Source: Amphiscolops sp. MND2022 (lineage: Eukaryota). From it: DNA of 64,000 nucleotides. A program made the translations under genes and the position numbers. The DNA lies in assembly GCA_964187785.1 (NCBI GenBank), contig OZ076409.1, positions 2,604,001 through 2,668,000 on the forward strand, given 5' to 3'. The notes under the pieces are model-generated. The model ran no database searches and had not been told where the DNA came from. It saw only the letters and a program-made list of their open reading frames with translations. Of the stretch, positions 750 to 31,144 are shown one piece after another; position 1 is the first letter of the stretch, and each line of letters opens with the position of its first letter.

Positions 750-788
750 TGTTTCTTTTTTTCGTCGAAATTAAGATAAGTTAGTTTG

Positions 789-2204: not shown

Positions 2205-2216
2205 CTCCCCACTTTT
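2205..2216 (-). promoter_or_regulatory. polypurine tract of Gypsy A
   Basis: AAAAGTGGGGAG lies immediately upstream of the 3' LTR on the minus strand. Confidence 0.85.
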
Positions 2217-3240: not shown

Positions 3241-3858
3241 TCAGAGGGGGAGGGTTGTGTATCGTTGATCATCATGTGTATCATTTGGGTGTTCTGTAAG
3301 AAGACAACGACCCTGCCAACGGAAGTTGGGGTCGTTTTGTATGACACTCAGGTGCTGTTTAGGGACAGATAGCACGTGTTTCACTTTTACTTTCTGTTGC
3401 ATTTCATCTTTATCTTTGTAAGTGTGTTTGAATGGCATGAATTTATGTAAATTGTTACAACGATGAAAAATGTACATGAATAACAAATGTAACAGCATCG
3501 ATATTATAAAACTTGCTATGCCTATTAGTATAGTGGATGTAAAAGGGGTTACGTGGCTAAGTTCGCGTCGAAAAGGATTTTTCAAAGCAGTCATATGCAT
3601 GACATTTGGTTCAGCAAATTTTTGAAGCGCTTTTAGAAGATGGGCGAGGTCAGACTTGATGGAGACGGCGAACTGAGAGAAGGGAAGGAGAAATTCCACA
3701 TTAATAAACTTTTCAGCGAGCAATATTTTTTTGTTCTCATGAAAGATGATGCTTTTTTTCAAAGGACCATCAGAATCGTCGGAAGCAGCAATCGGCGATT
3801 GACTGATGCCCAAATATGGAAGGAAGAGAAACAAAAAAGATTTGCAAATCCCAAACAT
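3241..3858 (-). CDS. short env-like membrane protein (205 aa)
   Basis: Sense ORF in the usual env position. It has an N-terminal hydrophobic signal (MFGICKSFLFLFLPYLGISQS), one TM helix (TILIGIASFIISMLLHLLFMYIF) and a cytoplasmic tail. The ectodomain is only ~90 aa. Confidence 0.55.
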   Translation of the reverse strand: MFGICKSFLFLFLPYLGISQSPIAASDDSDGPLKKSIIFHENKKILLAEKFINVEFLLPFSQFAVSIKSDLAHLLKALQKFAEPNVMHMTALKNPFRRELSHVTPFTSTILIGIASFIISMLLHLLFMYIFHRCNNLHKFMPFKHTYKDKDEMQQKVKVKHVLSVPKQHLSVIQNDPNFRWQGRCLLTEHPNDTHDDQRYTTLPL

Positions 3859-4277
3859 TCTGCGAGATGGTTCAGGGCAAAACGCGATGGGACGATGATC
3901 TTTAGATTTATTGGTATGTGGAGAAATGTGATTTATAACAATGTGATATTTCGAATTGAAACTGCAAGTTTGTGAAAAGAAAATATCAAAGTTGAAATTC
4001 TTTTGTTCGAGTAGGTGGTGTGATCACAAGAAAGATTCAGAAGTCGAATGATCGATCAAAAATGGAAATCGTACGATATAAGGATGAACAAATGCGTAGT
4101 TTGCTATTTAAACCGGATGTTTGAGAAGTTTTGTCGAATCTTCAAGAAGTGAGACCAAGTGTCGTATTTGAGTTTTTGAATTATTCGTTTAATAAGTAGT
4201 CGTCATATTTGAGTCTCATTGTTTCAAACGTAAGTGTGTTTAACATGTGTATTCGAGTTCGTCTGAGTCTGTCAAAA

Positions 4278-4607
4278 ATGAATTGCCCAAAGGCAAGTTT
4301 CGAGGGTTTTATCCTCTGGTGCTGTCCCGAGGGGACATACGTGGAACGAGGGGGTCGACTCCTCTCGTTCACGAAAGTGCCCCGACCCGAGTGCTCTCCG
4401 CCAGTCGCGACAATGACTGAGAACACCGGGGGAAGTCAGGTCGGTGTGTGGGTGAGTCTGACGTTGTCAGTACTCATCACCATTTTTGTCTTTTTGTGTT
4501 GCCGGTTGTTCCGAAAGCAACAGCAAGAGTTTGCAGTCGAAGAGAAAAAAAGGAAGATCAAAAAGAGCGGCCTAAAAAGCAAAAGAAGAAAAGGTCTGTT
4601 GGCTTGA
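4278..4607 (+). CDS. small Cys-rich single-pass membrane protein (109 aa), antisense to Gypsy A
   Basis: ATG at 4278 within ORF 4209-4607. TM helix VGVWVSLTLSVLITIFVFL is followed by CC and a polybasic tail (KKRKIKKSGLKSKRRK). Confidence 0.5.
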   Translation: MNCPKASFEGFILWCCPEGTYVERGGRLLSFTKVPRPECSPPVATMTENTGGSQVGVWVSLTLSVLITIFVFLCCRLFRKQQQEFAVEEKKRKIKKSGLKSKRRKGLLA

Positions 4608-4950
4608 GAGCAAAAAAAGAGTTCGAAAGAAAACAAAAAGAAAGAAAAATGAAGAAGAACTAGACGGTGGAAGAGAAGAAAAAGCCAAAAAAAAAGAAAA
4701 TACTGTAGATACAAACAAAATGGAAAAAAGAAAGAAGAAAAGGAAAAAACAGTGAAACAGAAAAGAAGAAAAAAAAGTTGTATTTGTGTAGTACGATGTG
4801 TAAAACTAGATATAGTTGCTACGTTTGTATAAAATGTACTGGTAAAAAAGTACACAGAAAAGAGAAAGAAACGAAAAAAAGGAGTAAAAGGCCAGAAAAA
4901 AAGAAAAAAAAGTAGTCACAGTAAAGAAAGTAAAAAGTAAAAAGAAAGAG
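4608..4950 (+). repeat. A-rich purine low-complexity tract
   Basis: Runs of A punctuated by G over ~340 bp. Confidence 0.8.
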
Positions 4951-5080
4951 AAAAAAGAAATTTGGCTGAAACGTCTTTTGTATTAATCAAACAGTTGAAG
5001 TTAGAAGTGAGTAGCAGTAAAGAGAACGGTAGGTGGGTGTGGTCTAACAAAATCGTTGGTTTGTATTTCAGATCGTCATA

Positions 5081-6367
5081 ATGGAGAGATTTTTGCACGA
5101 AGCTATCGTGAAGTACTTGAATGATGGAGTGCTCGATACATCAGTATTAAAGACGTCAGAGAAGAGGGAGAACTTTAAGAAGGTGTGTCGCAGTCTGAAG
5201 GTGGAAAAGGGTGTGCTTATGTATAAGGGGAGAAGAAACGAGTTCTTGCCAGGTCCAACGCCAGAACAAGTGGACAATCTCCTATACAAAGTTCACGTGA
5301 TAAAGTGGAAAGAAGGAGAGAACGATGTCGGAAAGAAGCACTACCGGGGGGTACAGCTTCACATCGACGCCTTGTCTGGAGCCGGTTGGGCGTATCCAGC
5401 ATCACTGGGAGGCCTGAAGGCGCTAGCGGAAGAGTAAGTTACGTTTGACATTTTCTAATATATATTTACAATATGCGTTGTCCTTCGTGTAAGATATAGT
5501 GTGCAATATTCAACAAGAAATAGGAATGCAAAAAAGCACAGAGTATACAGATAGGAGTGTTAACAGGTTCTTGCATAATTGCCAAACCTGCTATTTTGAC
5601 AGTGAGGAGGGAAAGCGGGCACAATTGTATATGCCTGTACCGCTGAAACGGAGTGTCGAGCTTTGTGAAAAGTTCGATTATACATGTATTTGGGAACCCA
5701 TCAGTGGGAAAATGGCCAATAGCACGGCAGTGGTATTGGACTGTTCGAAGAGTAAGGAGCCATTGGGCGAGCTGGCAGAATTCGGAGGCGAGTGTTTCTT
5801 CTCCAGTGGATACTATTTGATGGTTGGAAGGAAATCAGGTAAGAGGATTTAAAAAAAAATTGTGAAGCATTAAAAAAACTGGGAGCAAAAAGTGTGTTAT
5901 ATATAGAACGGAAGAACAGTGCACCAAGTAGGAAGTGCAAGGGGCTGTGTGTGGCAGCTACAGAGGCGATGCAGACTGCCGAATTTAAGGAGTACTGCCG
6001 TTCATGTCTTGGGACCGCGCCCAACGATTTCTTGGGACAGGAGTGTGCAAAAGTGACGGCCAGCATTTCCGAGGAGGCGGTAAGGGTCAGATGGTGGATT
6101 TATTGTATGTGTATTTCCATTGTAAGGATGAGTGGCTATGTGGAGGCAAAAAAAATATTTCAGATCTTAGCAACTGCCTGGGTACTGCAAACAGACCTCA
6201 TTGTGTACTGGCAGTACTGGAATATGGGCGGATGGATCCGTTACAAATACGGACCATCAAGCAATAGGCGAGGTGGCAGCTTCTTGTGCCAAGCCATCCA
6301 GGGAGGCGAGAGGTTTCGGACTCGCTTCCATTGCGAACCATTACCCGATTTTCCTGAGCCAGAGTGA
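5081..6367 (+). CDS. predicted spliced antisense gene: integrase-type H2C2 zinc domain plus OTU-like domain; exons 5081-5433, 5567-5838, 5907-6079, 6164-6367 (333 aa)
   Basis: Three GT-AG introns (donors GTAAGT, GTAAGA, GTAAGG; 133, 68 and 84 nt) join in phase to 1002 nt. Splicing restores LKALAEE-FLHNCQTC and ISEEA-ILATAWVLQTDLIVY. Confidence 0.65.
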
Positions 6368-7513
6368 GTAATATCGAATATTACATAGAGAGTCAGTAAG
6401 TCTTTTAGTGTGATTCTATAAAAAGAGGGGTATGTTTATTAGATTACTGACATCAGTGAGGGTGCGAGGGCCTGTTGTGGATCCCTGGGAAGAGGAGGAA
6501 GAGCAGGGAGCCTGTGGAAGTAGCTCCATGCAAACATAAAGGTAAGAAAATGCGCTTGTTTATAGAAAAATATAGGAAAAATGAAAATTACCAATTTTTT
6601 TGCAAGTTTTTTGGGTCAAACTCCTATGAAAGCGATAGGTATGGGGTATTTTTTTGCATAGGAATATCATAGAAAACTAGGAGAGAGGTTTGGGTGCCAT
6701 TACAGTTGAGAAAAAGAGAAAATTACATAAAATTGGCAAAAAAGGCTATGGGAGACTAAAGGGCCAAAAAGTCCCCCATAAAAACTTTTTAATTTTTTTT
6801 TGGATTTTTCGGATTTTTTGGCCTAAATCAAAAATTTGGGGTAGAAAAGGGGGATCACCGCTATTCCGGGATCAAAATTCTAAAAAATGGGATTTTTAGG
6901 GGTCTTTGAGGGTCAGATTTTTCAGGGGTCAAAAAATGGTCAAATTTTTCTGAAAAACGGCTAAGTAAAAGAGGTTGGTATGGGACCAAGGGGCCTGAAA
7001 ACTATACCTAGGGGATGTGGGGGATCCCACAGTGAGAATGAGGTATCATTCAGGTCGATAAGGAAAGGGTATGAAACAATTTTTGGTCAAAAATTGTCAA
7101 AAAACAGCGATATTTGAAAAAAAAATCGAAAATTTCATCGAGAAATGTCAATAAAAAGGGGGTAATTCAGGGCTTTAGGTGGGTGAAATAGGAACTAGAG
7201 GGATAGCAGAGGGTAGTAGAAGGCGCAAAGGGTACATTAAGAAAGGTTAAGTAGGGAAAAAATAGAATACTTATCCAAAATCATGGAAAAAATGGGGTGA
7301 AAAATTACAGTAAAAAGTGGTGTTATTTTCATGGTTTGGAACTAAAAAAGGTTGTACGGCTCGGTTTGGGTCGTAAACGAGTGTCACGACAGTTAGAGGA
7401 AGCTGAGGTGGTGATCGCAACAGTGGATGTGGTGGTAGGAGTATTAGTGTTACGAAAACCAGTAGTTGGGACAGTGTGATTTCGAATAAAGGCAGCTAGG
7501 TCTGTGGTTTGTA

Positions 7514-10500
7514 TTACAGGAGTGGTTGATGGGCGGTATAACGGAGCTCCTTGTGAAAGAGAAGTAGTAGGGGGTTTATTACCGTAAAGGGTAGGGTTGT
7601 TGGGGTAGGAGTAGTAGGACGCGGAATGCGTGACGAGGGTGGGCGAATGTAGTAGGGTTTAGCATTGGGGTGACTTGAATAAGTAGGAGTATTATAACGG
7701 TCAAATAGGGGTGTGACGTTCGATCGAGGAGTAGTGGAAGTTGGCGAGGCAATGGCTCGTGCTCGATTTACGAGCGTGTCAGAAAATCCTGAAAACGAGG
7801 AGGAGGAGGAGGAGGAACTCTCATGACCGGGTGTATATATGGATATACGTCTAGAAGTTTGAGAGTCCAAACCTAATGATTCCGAGTCCAGGGTTGGCAT
7901 AGGTTTTTGGGTTAAACCAGAAGGACTAGGAAAGTAGGAAAGTGAGGTATGACTCGAAATAGGGGTAGAATGCATTAAAGGTGGGTAAGGCGTAGAAGAG
8001 GTAATAGTCGTTACTATACCCGAAGTCGGCTGTGCGACAGTAAAAACATCGTCAGAAGTATATGTTGTTTCTGGGGTGGGAAAAAACGAAAAATGGGGCA
8101 TATTTACTGATGAACAGGGTGTTCCTGAGGAAGAGGAAACGAAAAACGAATGATGGTGTTGATCTTGGAGTGGTACAGTCGAAGTATCAAGCCGAGCTTG
8201 ATAAATAACGGGAGGAAGATCAACATGATATTCTACGTGTGGGAAGTCGCGGTTAGGAGGGACTTCAGATTGAGGTAGGGCATGTAAAGGCTGCGGTAGA
8301 CCCGGAGGGGGAACCAGGAGAGCCTGAGGTGCCGGTGGTGCCGGGGGAGCCGGTGGTGGCGCCGGTGGCACACGGCGTGGAACATAATGGAATACGACGG
8401 CAGGCGTATCTTCAACTTCGTCAGCCGTTTTGAAGGTTCGATCGGTCAAAAGGTCTGGAAGAGCCTGGTCAAAAAGAGCAGGTTCTGACACAAGTCGAGT
8501 GGATGGATCAGGAACGAAATTAGACTGGTTAACATTATCAAGGTCATCGACTGTATATTGTGGGGTGATTGGACGAAGTCGAATTCGGTGTACACACTGA
8601 GTGTAATAGGTGCCTACCTTTCGAACGATGTAATTTGAGTTCGTTAGTACAGATTCAACTCTATACAGAGGTAGCCATTTGGTGAGCGATTTTCCCATAT
8701 GGTCGTTGGTATTTGAAAGTTTTGGATTCAAGAGTAAACAAAACGAATAATTTTTCAATGGGGCGGCTGACGCTTTTCGGTCATAAAAATGCCTGTATTT
8801 ATTGTAAGTAGTGATGGTAGCATCACGTGCTAGAGAAAAGACTTCGTTCATTTTATCTTGAAGAGTACTCGTGAATTCATAGCGTGTTTCAAGGGTTTGC
8901 AAAAGTTTATTATCAAACCGTAAATCAAGTTGTGAATGGGGTTGTCGGCCATGGAGCAAAAATGTTAGAGTGCATCCAATTGAAGCATGGTAAGCCGTAT
9001 TATGTACAAACACGGCCAGATCTACGTATTGGTGTTAATAACGTATAATTTTGTTCTCATATATGCCCAGATACTTTTTCAGAGACGCATGAGAGCGCTC
9101 GACGGACCCAACAGTTTGTGGGTGTTTCACAGTGGCATATTCTAGTTTGATTTCAAGTAATCGACTTAGTTCAGTCATGACACGGGAGGTAAACGCTGTT
9201 CCCATATCCGAAAGAACAACTTTTGGTATATAGGCGGATCTCATAAAAATATGAAATAACTGCTTCGCAACATTTGGTGCGCTGGCGTTGCGCAGAGGAG
9301 TCGCAAAAAGATATTTACTAAAAGTGTCTTTGGCTGTGAGGATATGTGTATACCCAGCAGAATCGGGTAGTTCACCTACAAGATCTACTTGAAGCATATC
9401 ACCTGGATAGTATTTGTCAGTTGCAAGGGACAAAAGTGGTGTTTTCAACGTTTGATGTTTAACGGGTTTGATTTGAAGACAAGAGCTACAATTTTTTACA
9501 TAAATGGCTAGAAATTCAACAAAACCAGGGAAACAGAAATGTTTACGAAAGAGTTCTGCTGTTTTAGCAAAGCCAGGGTGGCCTGCATACTTGCTATTAT
9601 GGACTCGATAGAGAACTTCATTTCGCAAATGTTTGGGAATGACATATTGGCGAATAAAATTTCGGCCAGTGTCATCAAAAAATTTACGGTATAAAAAACC
9701 ATGGTGATTTTCTAAACGGTCAATGTGTTTGAGATACATTCGAAGTTCGGTACTCATATGAGGAAAGTCAGAAGGCGGCCCTGTTTCCAACCATGATAAC
9801 ACTAATCTAATAGTGTTATCTTTCTGTTGTTCCTCACGCAAATTTAAGGGTGTTAATTTATCAGAAAGGTCCATATCATCCAAAGGGTTCGGAGAATGGA
9901 GGGTGTTAATTTCGGGAAAAGATTCACGGAGACTTTTCGGAAGATTGAACGTTTCACGGTCAAATTTGAATGAATTTACTGAGTTATCAGGAACCTGCAT
10001 GCCCAAATGGAGGTGGACATCAGCTACAGGTATTTTAGAATTGAAGCGGAGTTCTAGCTTAGTGTGTGGTTGGATATGGATTTATGGATTCTAGACAGAT
10101 AATCTGCCGCTGCATTGGCTTTTCCTGGTATGTGACCTAGGACAAAGTTAAAATTCAAAACGTGATCCACACACGTCCAAAGGCTTGACGGAATTGTTTT
10201 AGCTTAGAAAAATCCAGTTAGACTTTTATTATCGGTGAGAACTAACACTGGTTTAGAACTTCCCCATAAAATATGTGCAAATGTGTCAAACGCAAAGTGC
10301 ACAGCTAAAAATTCCTTAGCATAAAAGGACAGCTTTAGATAGGTTGGGGTGAAGATTTTAGAACCAAAAGAGACTGACACATATGTCTTGTGAGTTTTGC
10401 CTGTTTGATCAATGGAATAGTCTTCAATTAAGAGGACGTATACAGCTGCGTAGAAAAACTAGCATCAGTCAAGATTAAATTTTGTGCATTTGGTTTAGGT

Positions 10501-12600
10501 AGGCGGAGCGACATTTGACATGCTTGTTCAAGATCTTTTCGTAAAGTAGTGATACTTTTATGGTGTTCTTCTGTTAAAACAATGTCTGATTCTTTTCGTA
10601 ACAATTGGTAGAATGGTAGCAGTTTTTCACCAAGTTTGGGAATGAATGAACGAAAATACTGGAAAAAACCAATGAATCGTCGAATCTGCTTTATGGTTTT
10701 AGGAGGTTTCAGAGTGGCTAAAAATCTGTTATTTTTGTTTTGTTGGGAGACATTCCTTCGCTTGTAATCGTATTTCCCAAAAATGTCATTTCTTTTAGAC
10801 CAAATTCGCATTACTGGGTGTGAGTCGTAGACCTGTCTTTTGTATGTTTTCAAAGATGGCTTCTAAATTGGCAATAAATTCTTCAAAGGTTTTAGCTGCA
10901 GTGCCTAGATCATCAACATATTGAAAGCACTGGTCGGCAACTATACAAGGGTATAAGTATTTTTCGCATGAAGGAACTAATGGCGCTAACTGAGCGGCTT
11001 AGTCCTTGAGCTAAGCGCAAATATGCGAATGTCCTTGAAAGAAAATTGAAAGCCAGCAGTTGCACTGACAATGGGTCAGTCATTTGTATGACATGATACG
11101 CTTGACTGCAATCCAATTTTGCAAAATACTTCTTGCTTGCAAGATGCGCATTTACATCTGCTAGTGTTGCTATTGGAAAATTGTGATTATCGTAATCATG
11201 CCTGATTAAATGATTGATTCGTTTAAGGTCTACTAAAATTCGCAATTTACCCGAGGGCTTACGGACGGCAAAAATTGGGCTTGAGTACTTAGAGTACGTC
11301 AAGGTTGTTATTACTCCCCAATATTGCAAAAGTGCCAATTCCACTAGGACTTCATCGCGGTAGTGAATCGGGGTCGGTGGACCTTGGGTATACATCGGGT
11401 TATCATTTTCGGGGGTAAATTTCACTTTAAATTCTTCATTTGCTCCAATGTCTAAGCGATGTCTTGCGAAAATTTGGGGATATTTTAAAAGTAACGTTTC
11501 AACTATGTTAATCTGTTCAGCGTTAAAAACTGAGTTTTCCCACGTAAATTGTGATAGAAATTTCTTTCGGTCTTCTAAATTTTTGTCTGGTTCCAGCTTT
11601 TCTCGTGCTTTTAGAGCAACGATCTCGTCATAAATTCTTTTGTGGATTCCTGTGAGGTTTTCTGGGTCTTTGCAATTTTCCGGTGTAGGTAACCAAAACT
11701 CATCTGTTAATGGGTATACTTTGGTTTCAGAGTCTTCAATGAGACCATTAATGCTTTTAGTTAAATGGTCAAAGAGAAGTTCAGGGTTGATGGGATGCAA
11801 GTATTGAGCTTGCTTGGCTGTTAAGATTGTTACTTTCGCAACAAGAACATTTTTTGTGACTGTTACTTTGTATGGCAAGATATTAAGTATCCCAAGGGAA
11901 ACTTGTTTTTGGTCGTTCAGTTTTGCAATTGCGCTGGTGACGCAAAGTCCTGTTTGTTTTTCAAAAAGCGGATTCGGTTCTACAATAGCTACTGTTCCTT
12001 CAGGGAAGGATTCAGCTGAGAGAGAACAAGTGATTATTTCGGATGTATTCGGTTGTATCGAATAGTTTTGAATAGAGTGTGAGAAAAGGTTTTTCTTCGG
12101 AGTAAGAGAACTTACTTTTCCGTCTTTATGTATCCGTTCGGTCAATTGTAAAGTCATATTGGGTAGTTCAAGCGTTCTCGTTCTAGGGTGAATAAAAATA
12201 TCATTTTTCTCAAAAAGTGGTAATCCCAAAAAAGTCTGGTTCATGGTTTGCAATAAAATGAAAGGTTCAGTGAAAGATTCACCTGCAATTTTAAAAGAAG
12301 CTCGAAAAGGACCATAGGTGGTTACAGAGTCATCATTTGCCACTTTTACAGAGCTAGTTGCTGGATTATAGTTTGTTATAGCTGTTGGACAAAGACGTTG
12401 TAGTTTTTGAAAAATGGTTATGGGCATGGCGCTTGAGAATGGCGCACCTGTATCGATTAAAGCTTTAACTGGGAAAGAAAAGTTAAGTGGTACAGAGAAA
12501 AGTGAAGTGCGAGGCTTTGAGGAAAGGATGTTTATAAATGATGAAGAGTTAATCATATTAGTAGATAAAGAAGGAGAAATATGGGCAATGTGTGGCTTAC
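7514..12600 (-). pseudogene. pol: Gypsy A pol (protease, RT, RNase H, integrase with long P/S/T tail), disrupted
   Basis: Protease ALIDTGA; RT YSSPIFAVRK...LRILVD and QYVDDLG; integrase H-H-C-C plus QVDLVG and VVLSDMG. It is split across ORFs 10913-12556, 10428-10853, 9035-10006 and 7514-9013 by frameshifts and stops. Confidence 0.93.
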
Positions 12601-13819: not shown

Positions 13820-14000
13820 TTGAAGGTTTTGTGAAGAAAGCTTAAATTATGAAGAATGCGTGTCGAATGAGAATTTTCTGGAGATTTTCAGGCAAAATTT
13901 TGTATAATTATCAACTGGAATCGATGAACATAGCTTTGTTTTAATCAGAAGTTGTTGTGTTTCAGTTGTTCAGGAAGGAGGCTGAGTGAACAGGAAAGGA

Positions 14001-14014
14001 GACTCCTGTCACCA
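14001..14014 (-). promoter_or_regulatory. primer-binding site of Gypsy A (tRNA-Leu-like, tentative)
   Basis: TGGTGACAGGAGTC abuts the 5' LTR end. Confidence 0.85.
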
Positions 14015-14378
14015 TGTCATGAGGTTGGTCCGAGCGGTGGACTATGAATTTTATAAAGAACATTTTGTATCACTTTTATACTTCAGATTTAGCCTGGGTT
14101 ATTTTCCTTTACTCATAGTGAATAAAGTTTTGTTGAAGAAATTAGTTTTAATGTTGAAGAGAAGTTGAAGCGAAGTTACAACTGAGTTATATAATTTACA
14201 ACAGTTAGAGCGAGTGTTCTTTAGATTGAGAAAGTTGTCTTCTGTTCTTGTGTTTAACCACTTCGTCGTATCGTCATCCATCTCAGTGTTGTCAGCCTCT
14301 GATTGGTCAACAACTTTTATTGGCTAAATACATTCTGTCATCGAATTATTGTAAATGCATCATGATTGTATCATGACA
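14015..14378 (-). repeat. 5' LTR of Gypsy A
   Basis: Direct repeat of 1841-2204, adjacent to the PBS. Confidence 0.96.
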
Positions 14379-14561
14379 CTTAATATTGTGAATTTCATTG
14401 ACACTTTTTGAGCCTTTTCAGGACAAAAACCTTCATTTCATAATGCAAGCCACTGTTTTGATCCATGTGTCAAAATTCCCGGGGCGCAGCATCTTTTCAG
14501 AAAGTTTCAAGGCACTGAAATGGACACTGAAAAGTGACGCTTCTGTTTATCTACAGTCATG

Positions 14562-20374: not shown

Positions 20375-20376
20375 CT

Positions 20377-23300
20377 TTGCCACATCTTCAGTTTGGGGAG
20401 ATTGTCGAAACCCGACATTTCACAACATCAGAACCCCCAAATACCTACGACCACGAAGAAAATGACGAGCGACATGAAGAACCATCCCTCGACTGGCAGC
20501 GAAGATGGCAGATTCACAAGCTCAACAAACAAAATAGACAAAACATGACTAAAAAGGACTACCCCCAATGGTACCTTGACAACCCAACCGACTACAGTAC
20601 CCCAAAACGACCACTACCCGAAAGTACTGCCCCTGAAACCTACATACATGACCCTGACTACAACTGCGACCCCTACTACAATCCCAAAATCTACGACCAA
20701 TTGACTCTAACCTTTAAACAACAAGAGTGTACGCCATTTGAGGAATTTATCAAGAAAACTGGGATGAATATCTCGACAGAACCACGTCACAGACCGAAGA
20801 CCGTCCAACCAGTCCCAGAATACGACCAGGACGCGGAACAAGTGACAGAAATAATAGTCGACGAGTCGACTAACAAACCCAAGTCCATACTCAAAGATCA
20901 CGGATCACAAACAACGGCTCCACAATCGCCACCAAAAAACCAACCAGTTAACCTAATCAGAGCCGGAAGAATACGATCCCCAACAATGGACGTGGCACCC
21001 GACTGCCACCAACATGAAAATCTCACCGGCAGGACCACGACTGAAGCCGTGGACCTGACCCAAACCACAACCAACACGGAGATAACAATCTCCACACCGC
21101 AAACAAGGAGAATAAAAAGGTCTCTACTCCTAGAGCCCCTCTCCCACAACGAGGCGTCGTCCTCACTCTCCTCCCCAAGAAGTCAGTCCGCAAATGAAGT
21201 CGAGGACCCTCGACCCAATACGACTGACGAAACGAACATGCAGTCTGAATCCCTACCCGGTGACGCAAATGGCACACCACTCCAGGACGTACCTAGGTCC
21301 TACCCCAACGACCAGACTGCAGAATACCCGAATCAAGATCATTCAGGCAGAGGGACACAAACCCCCCTCTCTTCCAACACCAGGCAGTCCGAAAATGAGA
21401 CCAAGAACCCTCGTCCCATTACGATTGCCGCAACCAACATGCAATCTGCATCCCCCTCAGGTGCTGTAAACGACACACCAACCCAGGACGAACCCCAGTC
21501 CTACCCCCTGGCGCAGATTGCAGAATACCTCACAAGAGACCCAATCACCAAAGAGGAATGCATCCCAATCTTCTCAGCGGTGACTCTTAAGAAAAAGAAG
21601 AAGATGCTATTCGCCCCAATGGACTTCCAGGACCTCACCCTGGACGCCCTCATTGACTCTGGAGCGCTGGTCAACTGCATCTCCGAAACCGACTATAACA
21701 AAATCCTTCAGATGTCCCCCAAGGACATAGTCAAAGAAATGGAACCACCCCCGTTCAAACTCCAAGTCGCAAACGGCGACATTGAAGCCCCCACCAAAAC
21801 AATAATCCTCCAATTTGAAATAGGGGACTGGAATTTCAAAGAGACGTTCATCGTTGCAAAACGACTAACAGGCCCAATACTTGGTCTCACATTCCTGAAA
21901 AACAACAGCGCCATTCTGGATGTAAGCCAAGGCCTACTCCACTTCCCCCATCTAACGTACTCAATTGAAACCGACGAGTACACCCGCAACCGAAAGATGT
22001 ACAAGGTACAAGTAAAGAATCCAATCACCATTCCTCCTGAAACAACCCAGACAATCACCGCGTACACAGACATAACGTCTACCATCGGCACAACCGGTGT
22101 CATCAACCCAGCTACCAACCATTGTAGCGGTGACCCCCTAGTAGTAGCCAGCTCAATATCTACAGCCTCCAACAGGAAAATTGAGGTAAGGGTGACCAAC
22201 ACTACCCCCACACCCTACACAATAAAAAAGAACACGACGGTTGCTGAATTCAAAATTATGTCGCCCGAAGAAGCCAAAGAGCTCAAACCGCTCAACACCG
22301 CAGCACTAAAAGTACTCACGGAGGATGACTCAGAAGATGCGATACTATACATCAACGAACTCCTGAAAACTTCGGACCAACCTTCCCAGAGTCAAAACTT
22401 TTGGTTCCCCACACCAGACAATCCTGGCGACCCTAGTACCCACACGCCGATTCAAAGCAGAATACTGAGGGAAATCAAGGAACTGGAAGAGATCCAGAAA
22501 CTGGACCCCAATAACAATGCTGAAGACCGAGAGGCTTTCCTCAAAAACTTTAAATGGGATGATTCCCAATTAACAGAAAATGACCAAAAAGACATTGAGG
22601 AAATCTTGATAGAGTTCAATGACATTTTCGCGAGGCACCGACTAGACATCGGAATCAACCACGACTTTAAAATCAAGCTCACGCCAAAAACAGACGACCC
22701 AGTCTACTCGCAAAGCCTGCCTTGCCCCATTAACTTGAAAGAGGACTTGACAGTGGAACTGGCATTAATGCATTATTTCGGGATTATAACAACCCTCCCG
22801 TTCAGCAAGTACGCCAGCCCGATTTTCGCTCAACGAAAACCGAACGGCCGCCTACGGCTCCTAGTAGATCTCAGAAAGATCAACAACCTGATTTCCGATG
22901 ATTACATCAATAACAATCATCCGGTCAGCACCCTCACGGACGCGGCACAACACCTCGCCGGCAAGAAGTTGTTTTGTAAGCTTGATTGCTCACAAGCTTA
23001 CCACGTACTGCAGATGGCAGACCAGAAGTCAGTCCAACTCCTAGCTTTCAACTTCGCCAGCAGGACGTTCGCGTACCTCAGGCTAGCCCAGGGACTGAGC
23101 CGCTCATTGTCATCCTTCTCAAGCTTCATGAGGGAGTATCTGGACAAAGCCATAAAGGCGGATAAATGCGCCCAATACGTGGACGACATTGGAATCGCCA
23201 CAAACACTCCTGAAGAGTTGAAAAACAATTTGAGAGAGGTCTTCCAATGCATCCGCGCTGCAGGACTCCGGCTCACAATGGCGAAATGTCAGTTCGGCGC

Positions 23301-26160
23301 CAAGGAAGTCGAATTCCTTGGGCGGACGATCTCCCCATCAGGCGTAGCACCCCAGAGCCACAAGATACAGAAATATCTGCAAACACTCAAGTTCCCCCGA
23401 ACGAAGAAAGGACTTCAACGATATATCGGATTTGTGAACTATTACAGAAATTACATTCCTCGATTATCCGAGAAGATTGCCCCTTTCCACGAACTCATCA
23501 AATCTGACAAGCCTGCCAAAATCGACCAAGAGCTCATAGCAAACTTTGAGGCCATCAACAAGTCCTTAGACAACGCGTGCGGGCTCTACCTCAAACAGCC
23601 GCTGCCAAACCGGCAGTATGTCCTGATGACTGACGCCAATTTCAAGAACGCAGGATACGCCTTAATGACCGAAGAGGACCCAGAACAGAAACTCACCTCC
23701 ACCAAGAAAACCTATGCTCCTGTGGCATTTGGATCTAAAACTTTCTCTCCGTCACAATTGAAAATGTCAATTTATGCCAAGGAGTTTTTAGCCATCTATT
23801 TCGCCTTCATGGAGTATAGTCACATCTTGTGGGGTTCCTCTAAGCCAACCATCGTCCTAACAGACAATAAATCAGTCACAAGGTTTTTTCAAACCAAAAT
23901 GATTCCACCCTCCCTGTGGAACGCTTGTGATTTCGTGCTTCAATTCCATTTCAAAATCGCCCATGTGCCCGGAAGGATGAACACGGCGGCAGACTTCCTC
24001 TCCCGATTGGACATCAGTCCCAAAGAAAAAGTCCTTCTCCAAATCAGAGAAGATATCCAGACAACACCCATCCAAGTGAACATCCAGTCCTCAGATATAC
24101 ATGAGGAGGACCAATTTTACTTCTTGCCAGAAGACGATTCCGAAACTGAGGAAGACATCTGGGAACGCAAACGGAGTGCCCGAAAGAAAATCTATAACCC
24201 CCAAGAACAACCAACTGATACTCAAACTGATACGACTGAACCAAAACCCCAAACGGAGAATCTACCCCTGGTCTGCAACAGCATCCAAGACCCGGAACAG
24301 AAACAAAGGCGCCAGCTATACAACGAAAACAGTTTTCCACGCAGCCTCAGACCACACCAGGACCAGGACCCTGTCCTCAGAAATCTCAAGCTCAAAATAT
24401 TGAAGGAGCCGTACGACACCCAACTCCTCAATGACGACCCCAGAGCAGCGAAGTACCTAGCCCAAGAAGATAGGATCATCATCAAAGACGGCCTCTTGTA
24501 TAGAAAATATTTTGGGGATACGGGGAAGGTCAAATATTTACAAGTGCTGCTCCCCCAACAACTGGTCAATGAATTCATACACCACCATCATGGCAAATAT
24601 GGAAGACATCCGGGCATAGCCAAAACCATTCAACAATGCCGCGAGAAATACTACTACCCAGGACTTGCCGCCCGGATAGCCAACCATATCTCACAGTGTA
24701 TGGAATGCGCCCAAACAAAGCGGACACCCAATAGCACCATCACACCACCACTAATCGACATGTCAAAAATAGCAATGGGACCCGAAGACGCACTCCAGAT
24801 GGACATAGTCCCCTTCGACGACCCATCAGGAGGTTACACCGCAGTCATCACAGCAATGGATGTCTTCTCCAGGTACCTATTCGCCTACAGTGTCGCTAGA
24901 ATCGACACCAGAACGGTCACCAGAGTCCTAATGGACATCATCACCAGACATTGCTATTTACCCACAACAATCATAACGGACAAGGGATCCCAATTCATAT
25001 CAGAAGCGATGCAACAAACCACCGCTGCACTGGGAATCCAACTGAAACACGCCACCACGAAACACGCTCAGACAATCGGCATCCTGGAGAGGACTCACGC
25101 CTCCCTGAAGGAAAGCCTCAAAATAATGGCAGGGGAACGGCGCACGATGTGGCATCAATTTCTACCGATGGCGGTATTGAATTACAATACCTCATACCAC
25201 ACATCACTAGGATGCGAACCCAGCAGAGTGTTTCACGGAAGAGTGCCCTACAATGTACTCGACCTGAAATATGGACTCAAGCCGCAGCCCCCTACCCCAA
25301 TCAACCACGAGATAGCCGAGGGAGTGTTACAACAAACACAACAGATCCTCAACCAAAGCCAGCAAGCTCTGATGCAAGCCTATGTCCGTCATAAACGCTA
25401 TTATGACAGAAAGGCATCAGCAAACCCACTGGTAGTAAACGACTACTGCTATGCATTGCATCCAAAGGCGCATAGCCAAGCGACAAAACTGCCGTTTCGG
25501 GAATACCTTTGGACGGGACCATATATCGTGGTCAAAACCCTACCCAATAATAACTATTTAATCCGAAAACTCCAAACGAACCTCACCCAAATCCTGCACA
25601 GAATCAGACTACGGCCATTCGCAAGCAGCCACAAACTGCCTGACATCTCAGTTGCGCCTAAAGATTTCCAGCAGGACACCGAAGTGCCTATACAGCACGA
25701 TGACCTTTTCGCAATGGCTTGGCAGGAACTTCACCAGGAACACCCTACCCACCCCACAAATAGTCAGCCACCCGAACCCGAAGTAATACCCCAAGCTCAG
25801 GAACCAGATACTGACCCAATATACCCCAGCCCTTCGAACCCCGACCCAGAGCATGGACCTGGAAGCAGTAATAACCACCCAGAAACCCAGACAGATGACC
25901 CAGACCTAGACACCGAAGATGAACCCGAAGATCGTCCACCCGTTCCTAAATCCCCCCGAAAATCTCATTACAATCTCCGACGAAACCCAGCTTCAAATTG
26001 GAAACCAGATTTCGCATACTATAATGCAGTAGAAATAAACTCCGAAAATCCCGCAATTCAAAACGAAGGCCTGAGCGATGGCCCAGAAATACAGATCCTA
26101 GCAGACCTCGGCCCAGACGGGGGCCCAAGATCAGGAAATCAATGTGGCCCCAGGCTCTAA
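20377..26160 (+). CDS. pol: Gypsy B Pol (PR-RT-RH-IN), intact, expressed by -1 frameshift
   Basis: Protease LDALIDSGA; RT YASPIF...LRLLVD and QYVDDIG; RNase H LMTDANF...FAFMEY...TDNK; integrase HHGKYGRHPG...CMEC, QMDIV, ITDKGSQF, ERTH; GPY motif. Confidence 0.96.
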   Translation: MPHLQFGEIVETRHFTTSEPPNTYDHEENDERHEEPSLDWQRRWQIHKLNKQNRQNMTKKDYPQWYLDNPTDYSTPKRPLPESTAPETYIHDPDYNCDPYYNPKIYDQLTLTFKQQECTPFEEFIKKTGMNISTEPRHRPKTVQPVPEYDQDAEQVTEIIVDESTNKPKSILKDHGSQTTAPQSPPKNQPVNLIRAGRIRSPTMDVAPDCHQHENLTGRTTTEAVDLTQTTTNTEITISTPQTRRIKRSLLLEPLSHNEASSSLSSPRSQSANEVEDPRPNTTDETNMQSESLPGDANGTPLQDVPRSYPNDQTAEYPNQDHSGRGTQTPLSSNTRQSENETKNPRPITIAATNMQSASPSGAVNDTPTQDEPQSYPLAQIAEYLTRDPITKEECIPIFSAVTLKKKKKMLFAPMDFQDLTLDALIDSGALVNCISETDYNKILQMSPKDIVKEMEPPPFKLQVANGDIEAPTKTIILQFEIGDWNFKETFIVAKRLTGPILGLTFLKNNSAILDVSQGLLHFPHLTYSIETDEYTRNRKMYKVQVKNPITIPPETTQTITAYTDITSTIGTTGVINPATNHCSGDPLVVASSISTASNRKIEVRVTNTTPTPYTIKKNTTVAEFKIMSPEEAKELKPLNTAALKVLTEDDSEDAILYINELLKTSDQPSQSQNFWFPTPDNPGDPSTHTPIQSRILREIKELEEIQKLDPNNNAEDREAFLKNFKWDDSQLTENDQKDIEEILIEFNDIFARHRLDIGINHDFKIKLTPKTDDPVYSQSLPCPINLKEDLTVELALMHYFGIITTLPFSKYASPIFAQRKPNGRLRLLVDLRKINNLISDDYINNNHPVSTLTDAAQHLAGKKLFCKLDCSQAYHVLQMADQKSVQLLAFNFASRTFAYLRLAQGLSRSLSSFSSFMREYLDKAIKADKCAQYVDDIGIATNTPEELKNNLREVFQCIRAAGLRLTMAKCQFGAKEVEFLGRTISPSGVAPQSHKIQKYLQTLKFPRTKKGLQRYIGFVNYYRNYIPRLSEKIAPFHELIKSDKPAKIDQELIANFEAINKSLDNACGLYLKQPLPNRQYVLMTDANFKNAGYALMTEEDPEQKLTSTKKTYAPVAFGSKTFSPSQLKMSIYAKEFLAIYFAFMEYSHILWGSSKPTIVLTDNKSVTRFFQTKMIPPSLWNACDFVLQFHFKIAHVPGRMNTAADFLSRLDISPKEKVLLQIREDIQTTPIQVNIQSSDIHEEDQFYFLPEDDSETEEDIWERKRSARKKIYNPQEQPTDTQTDTTEPKPQTENLPLVCNSIQDPEQKQRRQLYNENSFPRSLRPHQDQDPVLRNLKLKILKEPYDTQLLNDDPRAAKYLAQEDRIIIKDGLLYRKYFGDTGKVKYLQVLLPQQLVNEFIHHHHGKYGRHPGIAKTIQQCREKYYYPGLAARIANHISQCMECAQTKRTPNSTITPPLIDMSKIAMGPEDALQMDIVPFDDPSGGYTAVITAMDVFSRYLFAYSVARIDTRTVTRVLMDIITRHCYLPTTIITDKGSQFISEAMQQTTAALGIQLKHATTKHAQTIGILERTHASLKESLKIMAGERRTMWHQFLPMAVLNYNTSYHTSLGCEPSRVFHGRVPYNVLDLKYGLKPQPPTPINHEIAEGVLQQTQQILNQSQQALMQAYVRHKRYYDRKASANPLVVNDYCYALHPKAHSQATKLPFREYLWTGPYIVVKTLPNNNYLIRKLQTNLTQILHRIRLRPFASSHKLPDISVAPKDFQQDTEVPIQHDDLFAMAWQELHQEHPTHPTNSQPPEPEVIPQAQEPDTDPIYPSPSNPDPEHGPGSSNNHPETQTDDPDLDTEDEPEDRPPVPKSPRKSHYNLRRNPASNWKPDFAYYNAVEINSENPAIQNEGLSDGPEIQILADLGPDGGPRSGNQCGPRL

Positions 26161-26480
26161 CCTGGATGGCCGATCTACAACTGAATCTCAAATCTCCTCA
26201 ACCTACAGTGGCTTATCACTCTTTCACTCTACGACTTGGATGAAAACGATACAGAGGCTAAATACTAAATTGAATAACCCAGTGGAACACCGAGCTGCCT
26301 CAATTTTTTCTCTTTCGCTCCATACTACCAGAGCATAACAATTTTTTCTCCTTCTCTTTCTCTATAATAACGGAACCGACTGGCGGACCACTACAACATC
26401 AGGACAATGGGTATACAATAAAGAAACAACAAAAGAAAATAAATCAAAGCTATTCATCATAGTTTAGTTTCAAACAGTCT

Positions 26481-29400
26481 TCAACAAGATTTCTCTTGAC
26501 GGGACCCTTTTTTTGACCCTGTTTTCCTCTTCCGCGCCGACGAACTTGTAGAGGCCTGCAATGCATCGGATACTCCAGCTACAGAAACAGCTTCAGCAGC
26601 AGACGTGGTCCCAGATTGCAAACCACGCGATGATCGCCCATCAGCCATACGGGACCTCCACCCCTCGACTTGACCAGTGTAATAAGCTGTGTAACAGCGA
26701 AACAAACTTTCAAAAATTTCTCTCCAGGCATGACGACTAATATCGATGAAAGGATCAAAGGAAGTGCGCGACAAGAACTGATGCCCCACAGGCAAATTAG
26801 TCTTTAACTCTCCCAAACACTCCACGGTCAGCAAATCATTTGAGACAAACTTGGGATGGAGAACAAATGACTGCACCGCACTGATCCCTGAACGAATTAC
26901 AGACGCAGGAAGACCAACTCCACTACTTGAAATCTCAACAGGAGGCATAGCACTTGGCCCAGGACACACAATAACTCGCAATAGGCGCACCACTTGCTTG
27001 ACATGACCCCGACATTGATAAATGTCACTAGCTTCCAGGAACTCGAACACGTCACAAACCTGGGCAGGATCAGAAGACCGGCGACGCAGATCCACAACCA
27101 GAGATTTGAATTCATTTACAGATGCCTCTCGATCAACGCCACTCAGGAAGCTAGCATCCTGTAAACAACTCACCAGATCCTGGAACAATTCTACCACGTA
27201 CTCAGCATCTCCACACAGCAGCATATCCACACTCAAGCAGCTGAGAGAACGGGCCACACGGGAACTTGAATATGCTGAAGACCCAAGGTGTTTCAACAAC
27301 TCCAACAAAGAACCCTGGCACTCACGCAGGAAAGCGCGGCGCGGAGCATCATCAAAACCACGCAATGCCGTCACGATGCTGGGCTCAGACTGCAGACATT
27401 CCCCAGCGGTAACATTCGCCCAATTGGTCAAAGGCTGATCGATGTACTCGAACCAATTGTCGACTGATGGAAGCTGACTGACCTTCTTCACTTTGCCCAA
27501 AAGACTCCAGTAAAAAAAGCAAAAGTCAGTAAAATTGCGGCACGCGTAATCCCGAATTTTTGGATCCAGCTGCCGTCTGAAATTTGACCTGTAGCAAAGT
27601 AACACAACATGTAAGAAGGCGAATCGCGGCAAGACCAAACGGTCAGCACACAGAAGAGAATCCATATCCACAATAGTCGTCGACTTCTTCATTAACAACA
27701 CATTGTTGGATAAACACAGCTTCACGTCAGCCCAGTTATCCAGAAGTTCCTGCAGAACCTCACACAAGGACTCAAAAGGCACGACTCCAGATTCCAGACA
27801 CAAACGTAACTGGGGCAGATTCAACAACCACGCCTGATGGCGCACCCGCTTGAGACGCTGAACCAAGTACTCCAGAGCCGAGAACGGATCCACAGACCCC
27901 ACACACACAATACTAGAATCATTGATGAGACGACGCAACAAATCTGGATTAAAACTCACAGCAACAACAGGGACTGGTCGGCCCACTGCCCGACACCAAT
28001 CGATATACCCGTTAAACAGAACGGGAGGACAGTCCATAATCGCCGCAGGTCCTTGACTGGTTGACACAAGGGATAGTACACGCGCTAAACAACGCATCTC
28101 AGCCTCACAGGATGTCTCACTATGCTCTTCATCACAAAGGTGCACTTCTCGCAGACAGTCATCGGGGCAGCATCGGACGATACACCTCACACCGGAGTAT
28201 GAAGACTGCAGCGCCAAGCTAAACGGGCCGTCCCCAAGCCATGACTTTACGCGACGAAGCACACGCGGATAAAGAGTCTGCACCAAGACCACTAAGGTCT
28301 CAGTTTTACTCCAAGTGACTGAAGCGTATGGACTCTCGACTGGCAAGGTAGTCCGGAACTGATTCCACAGCCGACGCAGGAATAACTGGGACCCACCACT
28401 TTTCAGCAGCTCCAATAAGCATCCCACAAGAGTGGTCGGGGGCACATTAGATGGGACGCCAACAAGTGCATCTACTTCATCTTCGACGAACTTGTTCATA
28501 CGACCCAATACCACAGGAGGAGTTTCCTCAATCTCGGCACGTTGTTCAGCGGTCAGGTCAGCAACTCGGATGGGATCGAACTTCTCGGTATAAATCACAT
28601 CCTCATGGTCGTAACGGTACCGACGATCTTTGAGGTAATGACCCTTACACTTGAAGTGCCTCTAGATTCCGCGTGGACCCCGGGATAGAAAGGAAACATC
28701 TTTCTTGCAGATCGAGCAATTGAACCCATTTGGGCCCTTATCATTCCGCCGGCTGACAAACAATCGGGGAATCGCATGGTCACTCATGGCTTTCGTCAAC
28801 ACGTGACGCTCCGTCCGCTTCCTTGATCGATCTTCATCCCGAGCCAACAGTTTAGCCTTCTTCACCTCTAAAGGATCCAGAACACGACCAGGATTGTTGA
28901 CATCGATGCCCTTCCCTTTCAAAAGACGAGACAACTCTTCAAATTTTAAACACAACACCAAGGGGCTAAACAAGTAACTACATACCACAACTCTTCATGC
29001 AGACAATCAAAGATAGTGGCAAACAAAACCATCCCAAAAGAAACAATCGCAACAGTCAGGAAAGCCAAGCAATAGAATAATAACAACACCCTTACGTTTT
29101 GACAGGCTCTTCGTCTCTTTTAAAACTTCCGTCCGTTCAGCTCGGGCAGCACTTCGGGCCAGCATCACACACTGCGCCGCGGACATCACCATTGGAGAAC
29201 CAGGAGGAACTGTATCCAGGCCAGCTGATAACAAATGAGCAAATTTAACAACACTGCGAAATGAGGCTAAACTACCACACAAAGAAATCGCACAACACGG
29301 AGATGACACAAACAGTACAATGAACATGAAAATTTCAACGTACCCTTTTCCCAGTCATTGTAAACAACTGAGGCCTCCACCCCAACAGCGGCTCGTGCAT

Positions 29401-30322
29401 GTTGAGTCCTGCCACGCTTGGACGACTCTCCGGGGAGTTCAGAGACAGCATCACTGACAGGGGCAGGAGTATCAATCGCCGCCTCGCACACAAACACGTC
29501 ACTGTCTTCAGAAGACCCAACCCCAGGTCCAGGTTCTGCTCCAGTAACTGTAATACAAAATGAAGTATGACTAACAAGAAAATGCAGAACAAGTGTCCCT
29601 AAAAGCAACAAATGAACCCATTTCATCTACACAACACCCGAAGAAAGAGAGCGAATACCTACTTTCAAGAGTCCGAGAAGCAGAAATCATGGGGGGCATG
29701 TAGTCATCTCCTGAACTGTCATGAGCAGATGGCAACTTGGAAATGGAACCAGAGATGACGTCAGCCAACCGAACTCGCTTTGCCGACTGCACACTAGTGG
29801 TCGACAACTCCCGACTAGCCCTTGGTTTCTTCTCCCGCCGGGACTTTGTACTATGGGTCGGGACATAATCCTCATCAGACCCATCATCGCTAGCTACAGA
29901 AAGTAGATGAATAGAACGCGTTCAACGAAACCTAGAAAGGGCTGGCCACCCATTAATTTCTAGAAAAGATTACCTTTCTTCCGTGCCAAGTAGTCAATGT
30001 CATGGCGCTCATCACTGGTTGCAGAATGGAAAGACCCAGTTGCAACAATGCTCGCATGTTCTTCAACGCCGTCATCATCAGAAACTGCCTTTTCACCAAA
30101 GCCTGGCACATGCAGTTCTCCGTGACCAACAGAGACACCAGCTTCCTCCTGATTGCCTCCACCACTCGCCTCTCCACTCTCATCATCACTGCCATCTCCA
30201 CTAACTCTCTCCCCAACACGCACCACTGATCCCACGACGGACTCTACTTCTGCCTCACTCTCCTTCAGACCGACTTCCTGACTTCGACACAGCACAGCAT
30301 TATCCTCCTCGGTGGAGCTCAT
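26481..30322 (-). CDS. predicted 5-exon antisense gene: acidic N-terminus, BED-type zinc finger and hAT-transposase-like body (1122 aa, one in-frame TAG at 28662-28664); exons 30322-29974, 29893-29663, 29547-29344, 29224-29096, 28936-26481
   Basis: Four phase-1 GT-AG introns (80, 115, 119 and 159 nt) give 3369 nt in frame. Motifs: CSIC...I*RHFKCKGH, GPFSLAL, and a C-terminal LLRVIVCPGPS...E segment resembling the hAT dimerisation region. Confidence 0.7.
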
Positions 30323-30544
30323 GTTTCAAACTTGTCTAAAAATAACAAACCATGAAAAATTCAAAGAAGATGTGGCGTAAAACAATGGAATTATTAATAC
30401 TAGAAGTTATCTACTATATAAGGAGAGTTGTTCAGTCTGCCAGCTGAACAATTCATAGAGTTGACACAAACCGTGTGAACAAATTTTCCAAGCGAAGCAA
30501 ATCAGTTGTACTGAAAACTGATTGACACTCAGCTTGCTATTATA

Positions 30545-31144
30545 ATGAATCATCCCATTTCAAATAACCAAGCAGACGAAGACGTTTTTATTCTTGAACG
30601 AGATCAACAGCCAACACCGACTGAACAAAGGCCCAGTACTCCACCGCCTAATTATCGTATCATCAACCCGACGCAAGCTGCTATTGTTTATAAAATAGTC
30701 AAGACGGAAGACATACACGTAGTCCTTGTTCACGAACAACCAATTGCGAACGCAATTAACGTCGAAAATGAACACGGAATAATACGGAGGTTCACCACAG
30801 AAAACCCGGTTATCCCAGATGACGAATTCATGAGCCCCATCAGACGATTCAATCACGAGGACCAAAATAGCCATGATTATTTCGTCGACAGCCCTATGAG
30901 CTCAATAAGCGAGGCCGACATCAGCTCAGAAGGCTACTGGTCAGGCAGCAGTTGGGAAAGCAGCTCTTCATGGCGATCATACGATTCAATGAGAGATGAC
31001 CTCACCACTTTGTTTGATACACCGATACGATCCATTTCCCAATTTCTCCTTCCTGAGGGAACTGGGCAACGAAGCCGAGGACTGTCACAGCCCCACTTGA
31101 GCTGTGAGTATTGCAGCAGAATCAACCCAGTCTTCGAAGAATAA
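30545..31144 (+). CDS. hypothetical acidic/Ser-rich protein (199 aa) reading through the PPT region into the 3' LTR
   Basis: ATG-started 600-nt ORF with TATATAA at 30415-30421 upstream. The last 62 nt lie inside the LTR. Confidence 0.45.
   Translation: MNHPISNNQADEDVFILERDQQPTPTEQRPSTPPPNYRIINPTQAAIVYKIVKTEDIHVVLVHEQPIANAINVENEHGIIRRFTTENPVIPDDEFMSPIRRFNHEDQNSHDYFVDSPMSSISEADISSEGYWSGSSWESSSSWRSYDSMRDDLTTLFDTPIRSISQFLLPEGTGQRSRGLSQPHLSCEYCSRINPVFEE

Follow-up and report, generated by a model that had tools for sequence, protein, structure and literature searches.

Swappable antisense genes between pol and the 3′ long terminal repeat in a Gypsy retrotransposon lineage of Amphiscolops sp.

Additional open reading frames (ORFs) running antisense to the element, between pol and the 3′ long terminal repeat (LTR), have been described as aORF-3R in Gypsy elements of plants (Retand, Grande and RIRE2) and fungi (Boty) (PMC7264820, PMC11963269). 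The same sources, as far as their accessible text goes, report that Grande gene23 has its own upstream promoter and that the Retand aORF carries a Transposase_28 domain. Here we analyzed a 64-kb window (the whole stretch at positions 2,604,001 to 2,668,000 of contig OZ076409.1, numbered from its first base) of the 1.07-Gb genome of Amphiscolops sp. MND2022, in which two Gypsy elements, A and B, carry antisense genes behind pol. The families of A and B have the defining feature of aORF-3R, an additional antisense ORF between pol and the 3′ LTR. In the accessible descriptions the likeness extends to the presence of the ORF in most copies of a family and to a region of 3–6.5 kb. The present elements differ in having an animal host, spliced genes, several unrelated cargoes that replace one another and a head-to-head arrangement with env or another sense ORF. 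Their cargo can also be traced to DNA transposons and chromatin enzymes, origins that were not found in plants according to the accessible part of the PMC7264820 review.

Three animal systems come close in other respects, each judged from the accessible part of its source. The ORF3 pool of bdelloid rotifers consists of enzyme-like accessory ORFs (DEDDy, GDSL) exchanged among diverse retroelement types, but no antisense or intron-bearing ORFs are described there, and the cargo of the present elements is of JmjC, OTU and hAT-fold types and reaches Polintons (PMC5408684). The Tor elements of Oikopleura are Gypsy-like and have an env with two modes of expression, splicing from the 5′ LTR in Tor3a and an internal promoter in Tor3b/4b, which are also the two alternatives met with in the present elements; a protein-coding unit running antisense between pol and env is not described (PMC4402516). 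Metazoan Ty3/Gypsy elements with an F-type, errantivirus-like env share a signal peptide, a furin-type site, a fusion peptide and a membrane anchor with the env found here; the survey of these elements limited the pol–env distance to 1,000 nt and its accessible text mentions neither acoels nor antisense genes, whereas here about 2.5–4 kb of antisense genes intervene, so that the limit would exclude these elements (PMC13524379). A first-pass annotation of the window had proposed an undescribed system. Antisense ORFs behind pol are known from plants and fungi; however, in the literature searched (most subscription journals, Repbase reports and supplements were outside reach) we found no spliced, swappable antisense enzyme cargo beside env, no sharing of such cargo with BEL/Pao and Polinton elements, and no JmjC protein encoded by both a Polinton and an LTR retrotransposon.

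The window holds the two Gypsy elements and two BEL/Pao elements. A and B have the features of Ty3/Gypsy: paired LTRs, target-site duplications (5 bp in both), a tRNA primer-binding site (PBS), and gag followed by protease, reverse transcriptase, RNase H and integrase (PR-RT-RH-IN; Table 1). They have in common a 13-base PBS, TGGTGACAGGAGT, which fits the 3′ end of a tRNA-Leu(CAG) encoded in the genome (the full tRNA was recovered at one of three loci read), and an AAAAAAC-stop signal for −1 frameshifting. The first nine bases of the PBS were found again in most related elements read. This agrees with the earlier assignment of both elements to one Gypsy lineage on the same two signals. The six positions on which that annotation relied were all exact (starts at 3858(−), 4278(+), 30322(−) and 30545(+), TATTTAAA at 4105–4112 and TATATAA at 30415–30421), and its estimate of about 5 kb between pol and the 3′ LTR compares with a measured 5.3 kb in A and 4.9 kb in B. 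The span is about 6.9 kb in other A copies.

We observed the exchange of cargo at two levels of divergence. Three genomic copies (L072, L073 and L076) have a pol 96–100% identical to that of window B and are mostly 94–100% identical to it from about 30366 into the LTR, whereas over the coding exons and the introns between 26272 and 30365 the identity is only 58–84%; a further copy, L044, displays the reverse pattern. At a greater distance, loci L110 and L105 are sisters in a quick integrase tree (41 rows, six loci with short or no matches left out; Shimodaira–Hasegawa-like approximate likelihood-ratio test, SH-aLRT, 100), and their pol and env are 85% identical with no homology in between. L105 carries A2, the spliced antisense gene of element A, whereas L110 has neither A2 nor a relative of it and instead has an intronless JmjC ORF. 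On the same tree, the A2 label requires three changes. These module swaps between near-identical elements directly show that the slot behind pol is exchangeable, as the first-pass annotation had suggested.

The cargo is nevertheless a constant feature of its family. For B, 30 of 36 matches span more than 4 kb of the region, and the layout of an antisense homologue plus a terminal sense ORF was present in all eight copies of a family whose pol is 53% identical to that of B. For A, 19 of the 20 loci sampled around divergent A2 matches adjoin env in the same order, and so do, among the matches listed, nine of ten loci of a more distant env clade (41–44% identical). Measured only from codon states present in at least two copies, pN/pS (the ratio of non-synonymous to synonymous polymorphism) was 0.10 for A2 (15 copies, L023 left out), 0.15 for the B antisense gene, 0.22 for the B sense ORF and 0.25 for a small membrane-protein ORF of A (smTM; P = 9e-20). 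The compared copies show that the cargo is fixed in each family and under purifying selection, and not specific to single copies, the outcome that would have told against the first-pass proposal.

In element A, the sense ORF had been noted only as a short frame, and its env nature had gone unrecognized. Other A copies carry a full env, and in the encoded glycoprotein of about 740 aa we recognized by eye a signal peptide, a hydrophobic peptide following an RPRR site, and a membrane anchor. Because two of the 23 relatives scanned match Pfam Baculo_F (E = 9e-7), we identify the ORF as an F-type, errantivirus-like env, the middle of which is missing from the window copy. Weak matches to class I fusion peptides were also seen; a Pfam scan of one env (L032) gave no informative match and a PDB sequence search with env alone gave none. 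A second A copy, L012, has the same deletion as the window copy, and therefore the deleted form has been copied.

The start at 4278, which had been assigned to the spliced antisense gene of A, belongs to smTM, and the spliced gene begins at 5081; the earlier view that both elements have an intron-containing antisense gene was otherwise borne out, with five coding exons in each and GT-AG sites conserved across copies (in nearly all copies of A2, the introns of which tolerate insertions and deletions). smTM is a small single-pass protein with a juxtamembrane basic region (the basic tail was read by eye in the A clade), and a similar ORF was present in 23 of 33 env loci probed with a hydropathy filter. 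Its likeness to the MDG1 sORF2/FAST-like fusogens, which also are small proteins of an LTR element that cross the membrane once and have a basic tail, is superficial: as far as the accessible text of that preprint allows the comparison, smTM differs in being antisense, in coexisting with env, in lacking the myristoylation motif and in having a signal-peptide-like start in one clade (bioRxiv 10.1101/2025.03.14.642691). We set aside the reading of smTM as a FAST fusogen, since MGxxxS/T is absent (none of 23 smTM proteins begins with MG) and env is present in the same elements.

A2 alone had no match in Pfam or PDB searches (in PDB, none for exon 2 and a chance-level one for exon 4). However, a profile of A2 (20 rows) aligned collinearly, over positions 1–278 of 322, with intronless BEL/Pao ORFs whose C-terminus passes the Pfam OTU threshold. 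This match scored 25 bits, the best of 300 shuffles being 3.2, and it extends from an integrase-like N-terminus through an H2C2 finger to the OTU Cys loop, with the Cys and His invariant. In the reverse test, an OTU profile built from six genomic OTU matches scored A2 at only 2.7 bits. The Ginger1 transposase, in the accessible part of its description, likewise has an N-terminal YPYY motif and H2C2 finger, a C-terminal OTU domain and GT-AG introns; A2 differs in its length of 368 aa, in lacking the DDE core and the GPY/F motif, and in residing inside retroelements and a Polinton (PMC2836005). In A2 the OTU part directly follows the finger, and its product gave no rve match. From the profile, A2 is predicted to be a Ginger-like zinc-finger/OTU protease, with the layout of Ginger1 minus the DDE core. 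The A2 module is tandemly duplicated inside the elements at L058, L063 and L064.

The antisense gene of element B encodes a product with an acidic N-terminus, a BED-like zinc finger and a hAT-transposase fold. In the window copy a stop at codon 399 breaks the gene and the last acceptor is non-canonical; among 13 copies the gene is open in four and has stops or frameshifts in the other nine. The last exon has 6,757 candidate matches in the genome, 93 of which were scored. Pfam gave no informative match and the ESM Atlas nothing usable, whereas the predicted model (predicted local distance difference test, pLDDT, 81) found the Hermes hAT transposase as its top match (E = 1e-3, Z = 14.3, 399 residues aligned), with a conserved C-x2-C...H...H finger of BED type and an RNase H fold bearing a helical insertion. 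In contrast to Hermes, the positions expected for the first two catalytic residues, which were placed by secondary structure and not by structural alignment, lack a conserved acidic residue: no conserved Asp ends strand 1 (columns 189–193), and an Asp follows strand 4 in only 4 of 29 rows. From its model, the B cargo is predicted to be a hAT-transposase-fold protein that has probably lost its cutting residues. The sense ORF of B, which does end in the LTR as first annotated, is not an env, and no family was found for it in Pfam or ESM Atlas searches. Within the B LTR, GCGGCCTGA-like words are repeated at 31380–31470, 31625–31650, 31825–31850 and 32030–32050; they may be binding sites, possibly for B's own zinc-finger cargo. 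The gag frame of B begins inside the LTR (18803–19166), so that the 3′ LTR (32926–33300) contains a second copy of about 120 codons, and the gag start of the L112 family is similar.

The third cargo type is found in relatives of A and B. In the JmjC ORFs, H161, E163 and H237 (H-x-E...H) are invariant in 17 of 17 family members. They gave no Pfam JmjC match and only a weak KDM7 match in a PDB sequence search (E = 0.52); the predicted model (pLDDT 79), however, has the KDM7/PHF8/KDM2 demethylases as its top fold matches (E about 1e-7), with TYW5, FIH and JMJD5/6 scoring nearly as well. Unlike those demethylases, the cargo is a bare domain of 340–450 aa with a basic tail and no reader domain. The fold, with its H-x-D/E...H metal triad, predicts a KDM2/7-like JmjC dioxygenase, which may act on histones or on other substrates.

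Of 20 JmjC loci, 15 are Gypsy, four are BEL/Pao and one lies beside a Polinton polymerase; the ORF runs antisense behind pol in the Gypsy elements and in the BEL/Pao elements alike. The JmjCs of BEL/Pao do not form one clade (approximately unbiased test, p-AU 2e-7, with one long branch). The only Polinton JmjC locus (L136) is rearranged, and both of its flanks are shared with an A2-bearing Polinton; a second candidate, L131, was rejected, being a Gypsy element with insertions. Spliced A2 lay inside a Polinton at both loci read and groups there with A-clade Gypsy A2 (support 96/98), the direction of transfer hinging on a long-branch root. In all three BEL/Pao elements read, the region from pol to the 3′ LTR contains an OTU ORF that is intronless and antisense. 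At the sequence level, these data show that OTU-type and JmjC-type cargo is common to Gypsy, BEL/Pao and Polinton elements. The cargoes of A and B are unrelated in sequence, as the first-pass annotation stated; it did not recognize that the cargo derives from enzymes of DNA transposons and of chromatin, which occur in other element classes too.

Could the layouts of A and B have arisen independently, genes of DNA transposons having been inserted after pol and having survived there only backwards? This is compatible with the explanation that we favor below, and we regard it as unlikely but a serious contender. The B-type elements form their own long-branched clade in the integrase tree, and A is unrelated to B in its cargo, its gap and its sense ORF; moreover, both spliced cargoes resemble DNA-transposon genes and the same position is used in BEL/Pao elements. 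However, the layout is near-universal in the tRNA-Leu-primed lineage and was found in none of 19 Gypsy loci of other lineages sampled via Pfam rve, ten of which had nothing after pol and nine only sense accessory ORFs (this control covered ORFs of at least 140 aa and probes, so that small exons could be missed, and one 2-kb locus was dropped). A further point against it is that cargo without introns is antisense as well. In one of the other lineages (L093–L101), pol is followed by three to four accessory ORFs in sense orientation, among them one for a glycoprotein-like protein of about 900 aa.

The first-pass annotation had placed an internal bidirectional promoter between the divergent starts. 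Such a promoter, driving both the sense ORF and the antisense genes, would extend the internal env promoters mapped in Oikopleura Tor3b/4b according to the accessible text of PMC4402516. It is favored by the gap of B, where 28 of 30 columns at 30411–30440 are invariant among 13 copies and where this core contains a near-symmetric TATATA and marks the boundary of the swap; also, the gaps of the A and P0029 clades are 300–550 nt long and the envs there have their own start codon. The TATA-like words taken as its signature, however, are no more frequent than in resampled sequence (P = 0.30 for the A gap and 0.27 for the B gap), and they occur in five of 21 env–smTM gaps against 4.7 expected. Across the families we found no conserved core-promoter motif with room for two starts, the conservation being restricted to B.

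Other families also argue against a promoter in the gap. Where JmjC cargo adjoins env, the start-to-start gap is only 63–178 nt and contains back-to-back acceptors, and in seven of nine such loci env lacks its own start codon and begins at a phase-1 splice acceptor. In four elements, of which two are almost the same, the signal peptide of env is completed by a leader exon of 28 bases, which is located between the 5′ LTR and gag and ends in a GTAAGT donor of the same phase. In the BEL/Pao elements the cargo has no sense partner and 50–86 nt separate the JmjC start from the 3′ LTR, which places the origin of the antisense RNA within the LTR or beyond it. The bidirectional promoter thus appears rather unlikely as a general mechanism, although in B, where the core is conserved and marks the swap boundary, a promoter within the gap is possible.

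The antisense starts have a different signature. Acceptor-like sites within 25 nt accompany 16 of 21 smTM starts and seven of 13 JmjC starts; the corresponding figures are none of 14 for gag starts and 13% for background windows. These counts are not independent because the families are related. A spliced leader published for an acoel flatworm has 1,752 matches in the genome with at most one mismatch and the reversed control has none, so the host is probably an acoel with trans-splicing. The accessible text of the source of the motif gives the share of trans-spliced genes as 30% (PMC9911081). Unpaired acceptors before each ORF, together with a host spliced leader, are what we would expect a trans-spliced unit to look like. 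At L180–L182, dispersed spliced-leader copies are followed by non-donor sequence and look like reverse-transcribed leader-capped mRNAs.

Considering these observations together, we hold it somewhat more probable than the contrary that one Gypsy lineage has a swappable slot behind pol for conserved antisense genes, likely expressed as a backward unit trans-spliced to the spliced leader and likely helping the element to resist silencing. Template switching between co-packaged RNAs is established retroelement biology, and during reverse transcription it would most likely replace the module at its conserved flanks. Introns survive on the strand opposite to the packaged RNA, which is the principle of retrotransposition reporters; intron-bearing cargo would likewise persist here, since the packaged RNA is the opposite strand and would never be spliced there. 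The antisense RNA would start in or near the 3′ LTR (or in the gap of B), and each antisense ORF would be freed by the host spliced leader at the acceptor just before its start codon. The env would be made by splicing of the ordinary sense RNA, at least in some families, so that head-to-head starts would need no shared promoter. The cargo proteins would act on chromatin or ubiquitin marks, and smTM would partner env.

For the role of the cargo we tentatively favor counter-silencing or self-regulation, with confidence somewhat short of even, because the three cargoes, though unrelated, all suggest a role in the nucleus: one has the fold of a demethylase, one a deubiquitinase domain that follows a zinc finger, and one is a DNA binder folded like a transposase. 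In its widest form the proposal is more doubtful, namely that one antisense slot serves the env-bearing Gypsy, the BEL/Pao and the Polinton elements of this genome for exchanging anti-silencing enzymes (a demethylase of JmjC type, a deubiquitinase derived from Ginger and a disarmed DNA-binding protein of hAT origin), and that it is run as a trans-spliced backward operon with smTM co-expressed opposite env. A role of the antisense region mainly as RNA (self-limiting double-stranded RNA or small RNAs), with proteins secondary, has been proposed for plant antisense ORFs and for micropia in the accessible text of PMC7264820, but appears improbable here: purifying selection is strong at the codon level and in one frame only, and catalytic-type residues are conserved in the JmjC and OTU cargo. 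That the cargo represents neutral nested insertions or copy-specific captures, as the broken window copies of the B gene and the A env and the disrupted majority of B copies might suggest, is scarcely credible, given a position that is constant across many families at 24–77% protein identity and shared changes that are mostly synonymous.

Several observations weigh against the trans-spliced antisense slot. For env, we found no leader donor in L134 and no strong one in the A clade, and the conserved donor at 4230 in A could serve cis-splicing from a gap promoter. A local promoter would agree with the strong conservation of the B gap core. Both the JmjC ORFs and the OTU ORFs of BEL/Pao are intronless and yet antisense, and therefore intron protection alone does not explain the orientation. 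With integrases of A and B only 36% identical, and with unrelated sense ORFs and gaps, a single ancestral slot is only a possibility. A2 itself, moreover, lacks a match in Pfam or PDB.

The coordinates of the features are given in Table 1. A third Gypsy element (window positions 1–900, and L065) has another PBS, an internal deletion and no cargo after pol. The two BEL/Pao elements of the window, at 34681–42989 (+) and 53577–62975 (−), are young (LTRs 99.7% identical) and have no room for cargo after pol; the first contains a 23-nt tandem repeat at 35021–35182. A 1.5-kb tandem duplication at 44937–47940 is 99.3% identical. Elsewhere in the genome, the tRNA-Leu 3′-end motif forms a long tandem array (G000:C8, about 35.60–35.66 Mb) and has 753 matches in all. 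In the P0029-type env clade, the C-terminus of pol (L102:339-3044, L110:3-2501) has a weak Macro-domain match (E = 0.04–0.08), and an extra sense ORF of about 110 aa, for which no family was found, lies between smTM and the enzyme cargo (L102:4996-5370, L105:5128-5508, L110:5008-5346).

Table 1. Positions of the features of elements A and B in the window
Feature	Position	Strand	Remarks
Element A, Gypsy	1841-14378	−	LTRs 97.3% identical; pol broken
Element A 3′ LTR	1841..2205	−	97.3% identical to 14014-14380; target-site duplication CTTAA
F-type env remnant (signal peptide ... membrane anchor)	3241..3858	−	about 1.6 kb missing at 3632/3633; acceptor-like CAG abuts start codon
TATTTAAA TATA-like word	4105..4112	+	retained in most A copies, not across families
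Donor-like GTAAGT upstream of smTM ORF	4230..4235	+	GT conserved in 15/15 copies
smTM, small Cys-Cys membrane protein ORF	4278..4607	+	antisense to element A, head-to-head with env
A2, spliced antisense gene	5081..6539	+	exons 5081-5433, 5555-5838, 5907-6079, 6164-6363, 6443-6539; 368 aa
Element A gag-pol	7514..13846	−	stops and frameshifts break frame; slippery site AAAAAAC at 12604-12610
Element A PBS (tRNA-Leu)	14002..14014	−	
Element A 5′ LTR	14015..14378	−	paired LTR; target-site duplication
Element B, Gypsy	16960-33289	+	LTRs 99.8% identical; pol open
Element B 5′ LTR	16960..19166	+	2,207 bp; gag frame starts inside LTR
Element B gag and pol	18803..26160	+	gag to 20374; open pol 20293-26160 (PR-RT-RH-IN); slippery site 20365-20371
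Element B PBS	19167..19179	+	same 13 bases as A
B swapped module	26272..30365	.	within these limits, identity drops sharply in three copies that are near-identical elsewhere
B spliced antisense gene	26481..30322	−	exons 30322-29974, 29893-29663, 29547-29344, 29224-29096, 28945-26481; 1,125 aa
B gap conserved non-coding core	30411..30450	.	TATATAA and 8-bp inverted repeat
B sense ORF	30545..31144	+	199 aa, acidic, Ser-rich; ends inside 3′ LTR
Element B 3′ LTR	31083..33289	+	99.8% identical to 5′ LTR; target-site duplication GGAGT

Little is understood of how retrotransposons escape silencing in animals with genomes dominated by them, and where antisense accessory ORFs come from and what they do has not been clarified even in plants. 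The cargo described here has recognizable enzyme folds, occurs in alternative forms in near-identical elements, which amount to natural swap experiments, and moves across three element classes; therefore its function is testable. Surveys that require env to lie close to pol would miss the env elements of this kind. If the proposed explanation is true, these would be retroelements that use spliced-leader trans-splicing to run an antisense gene unit.

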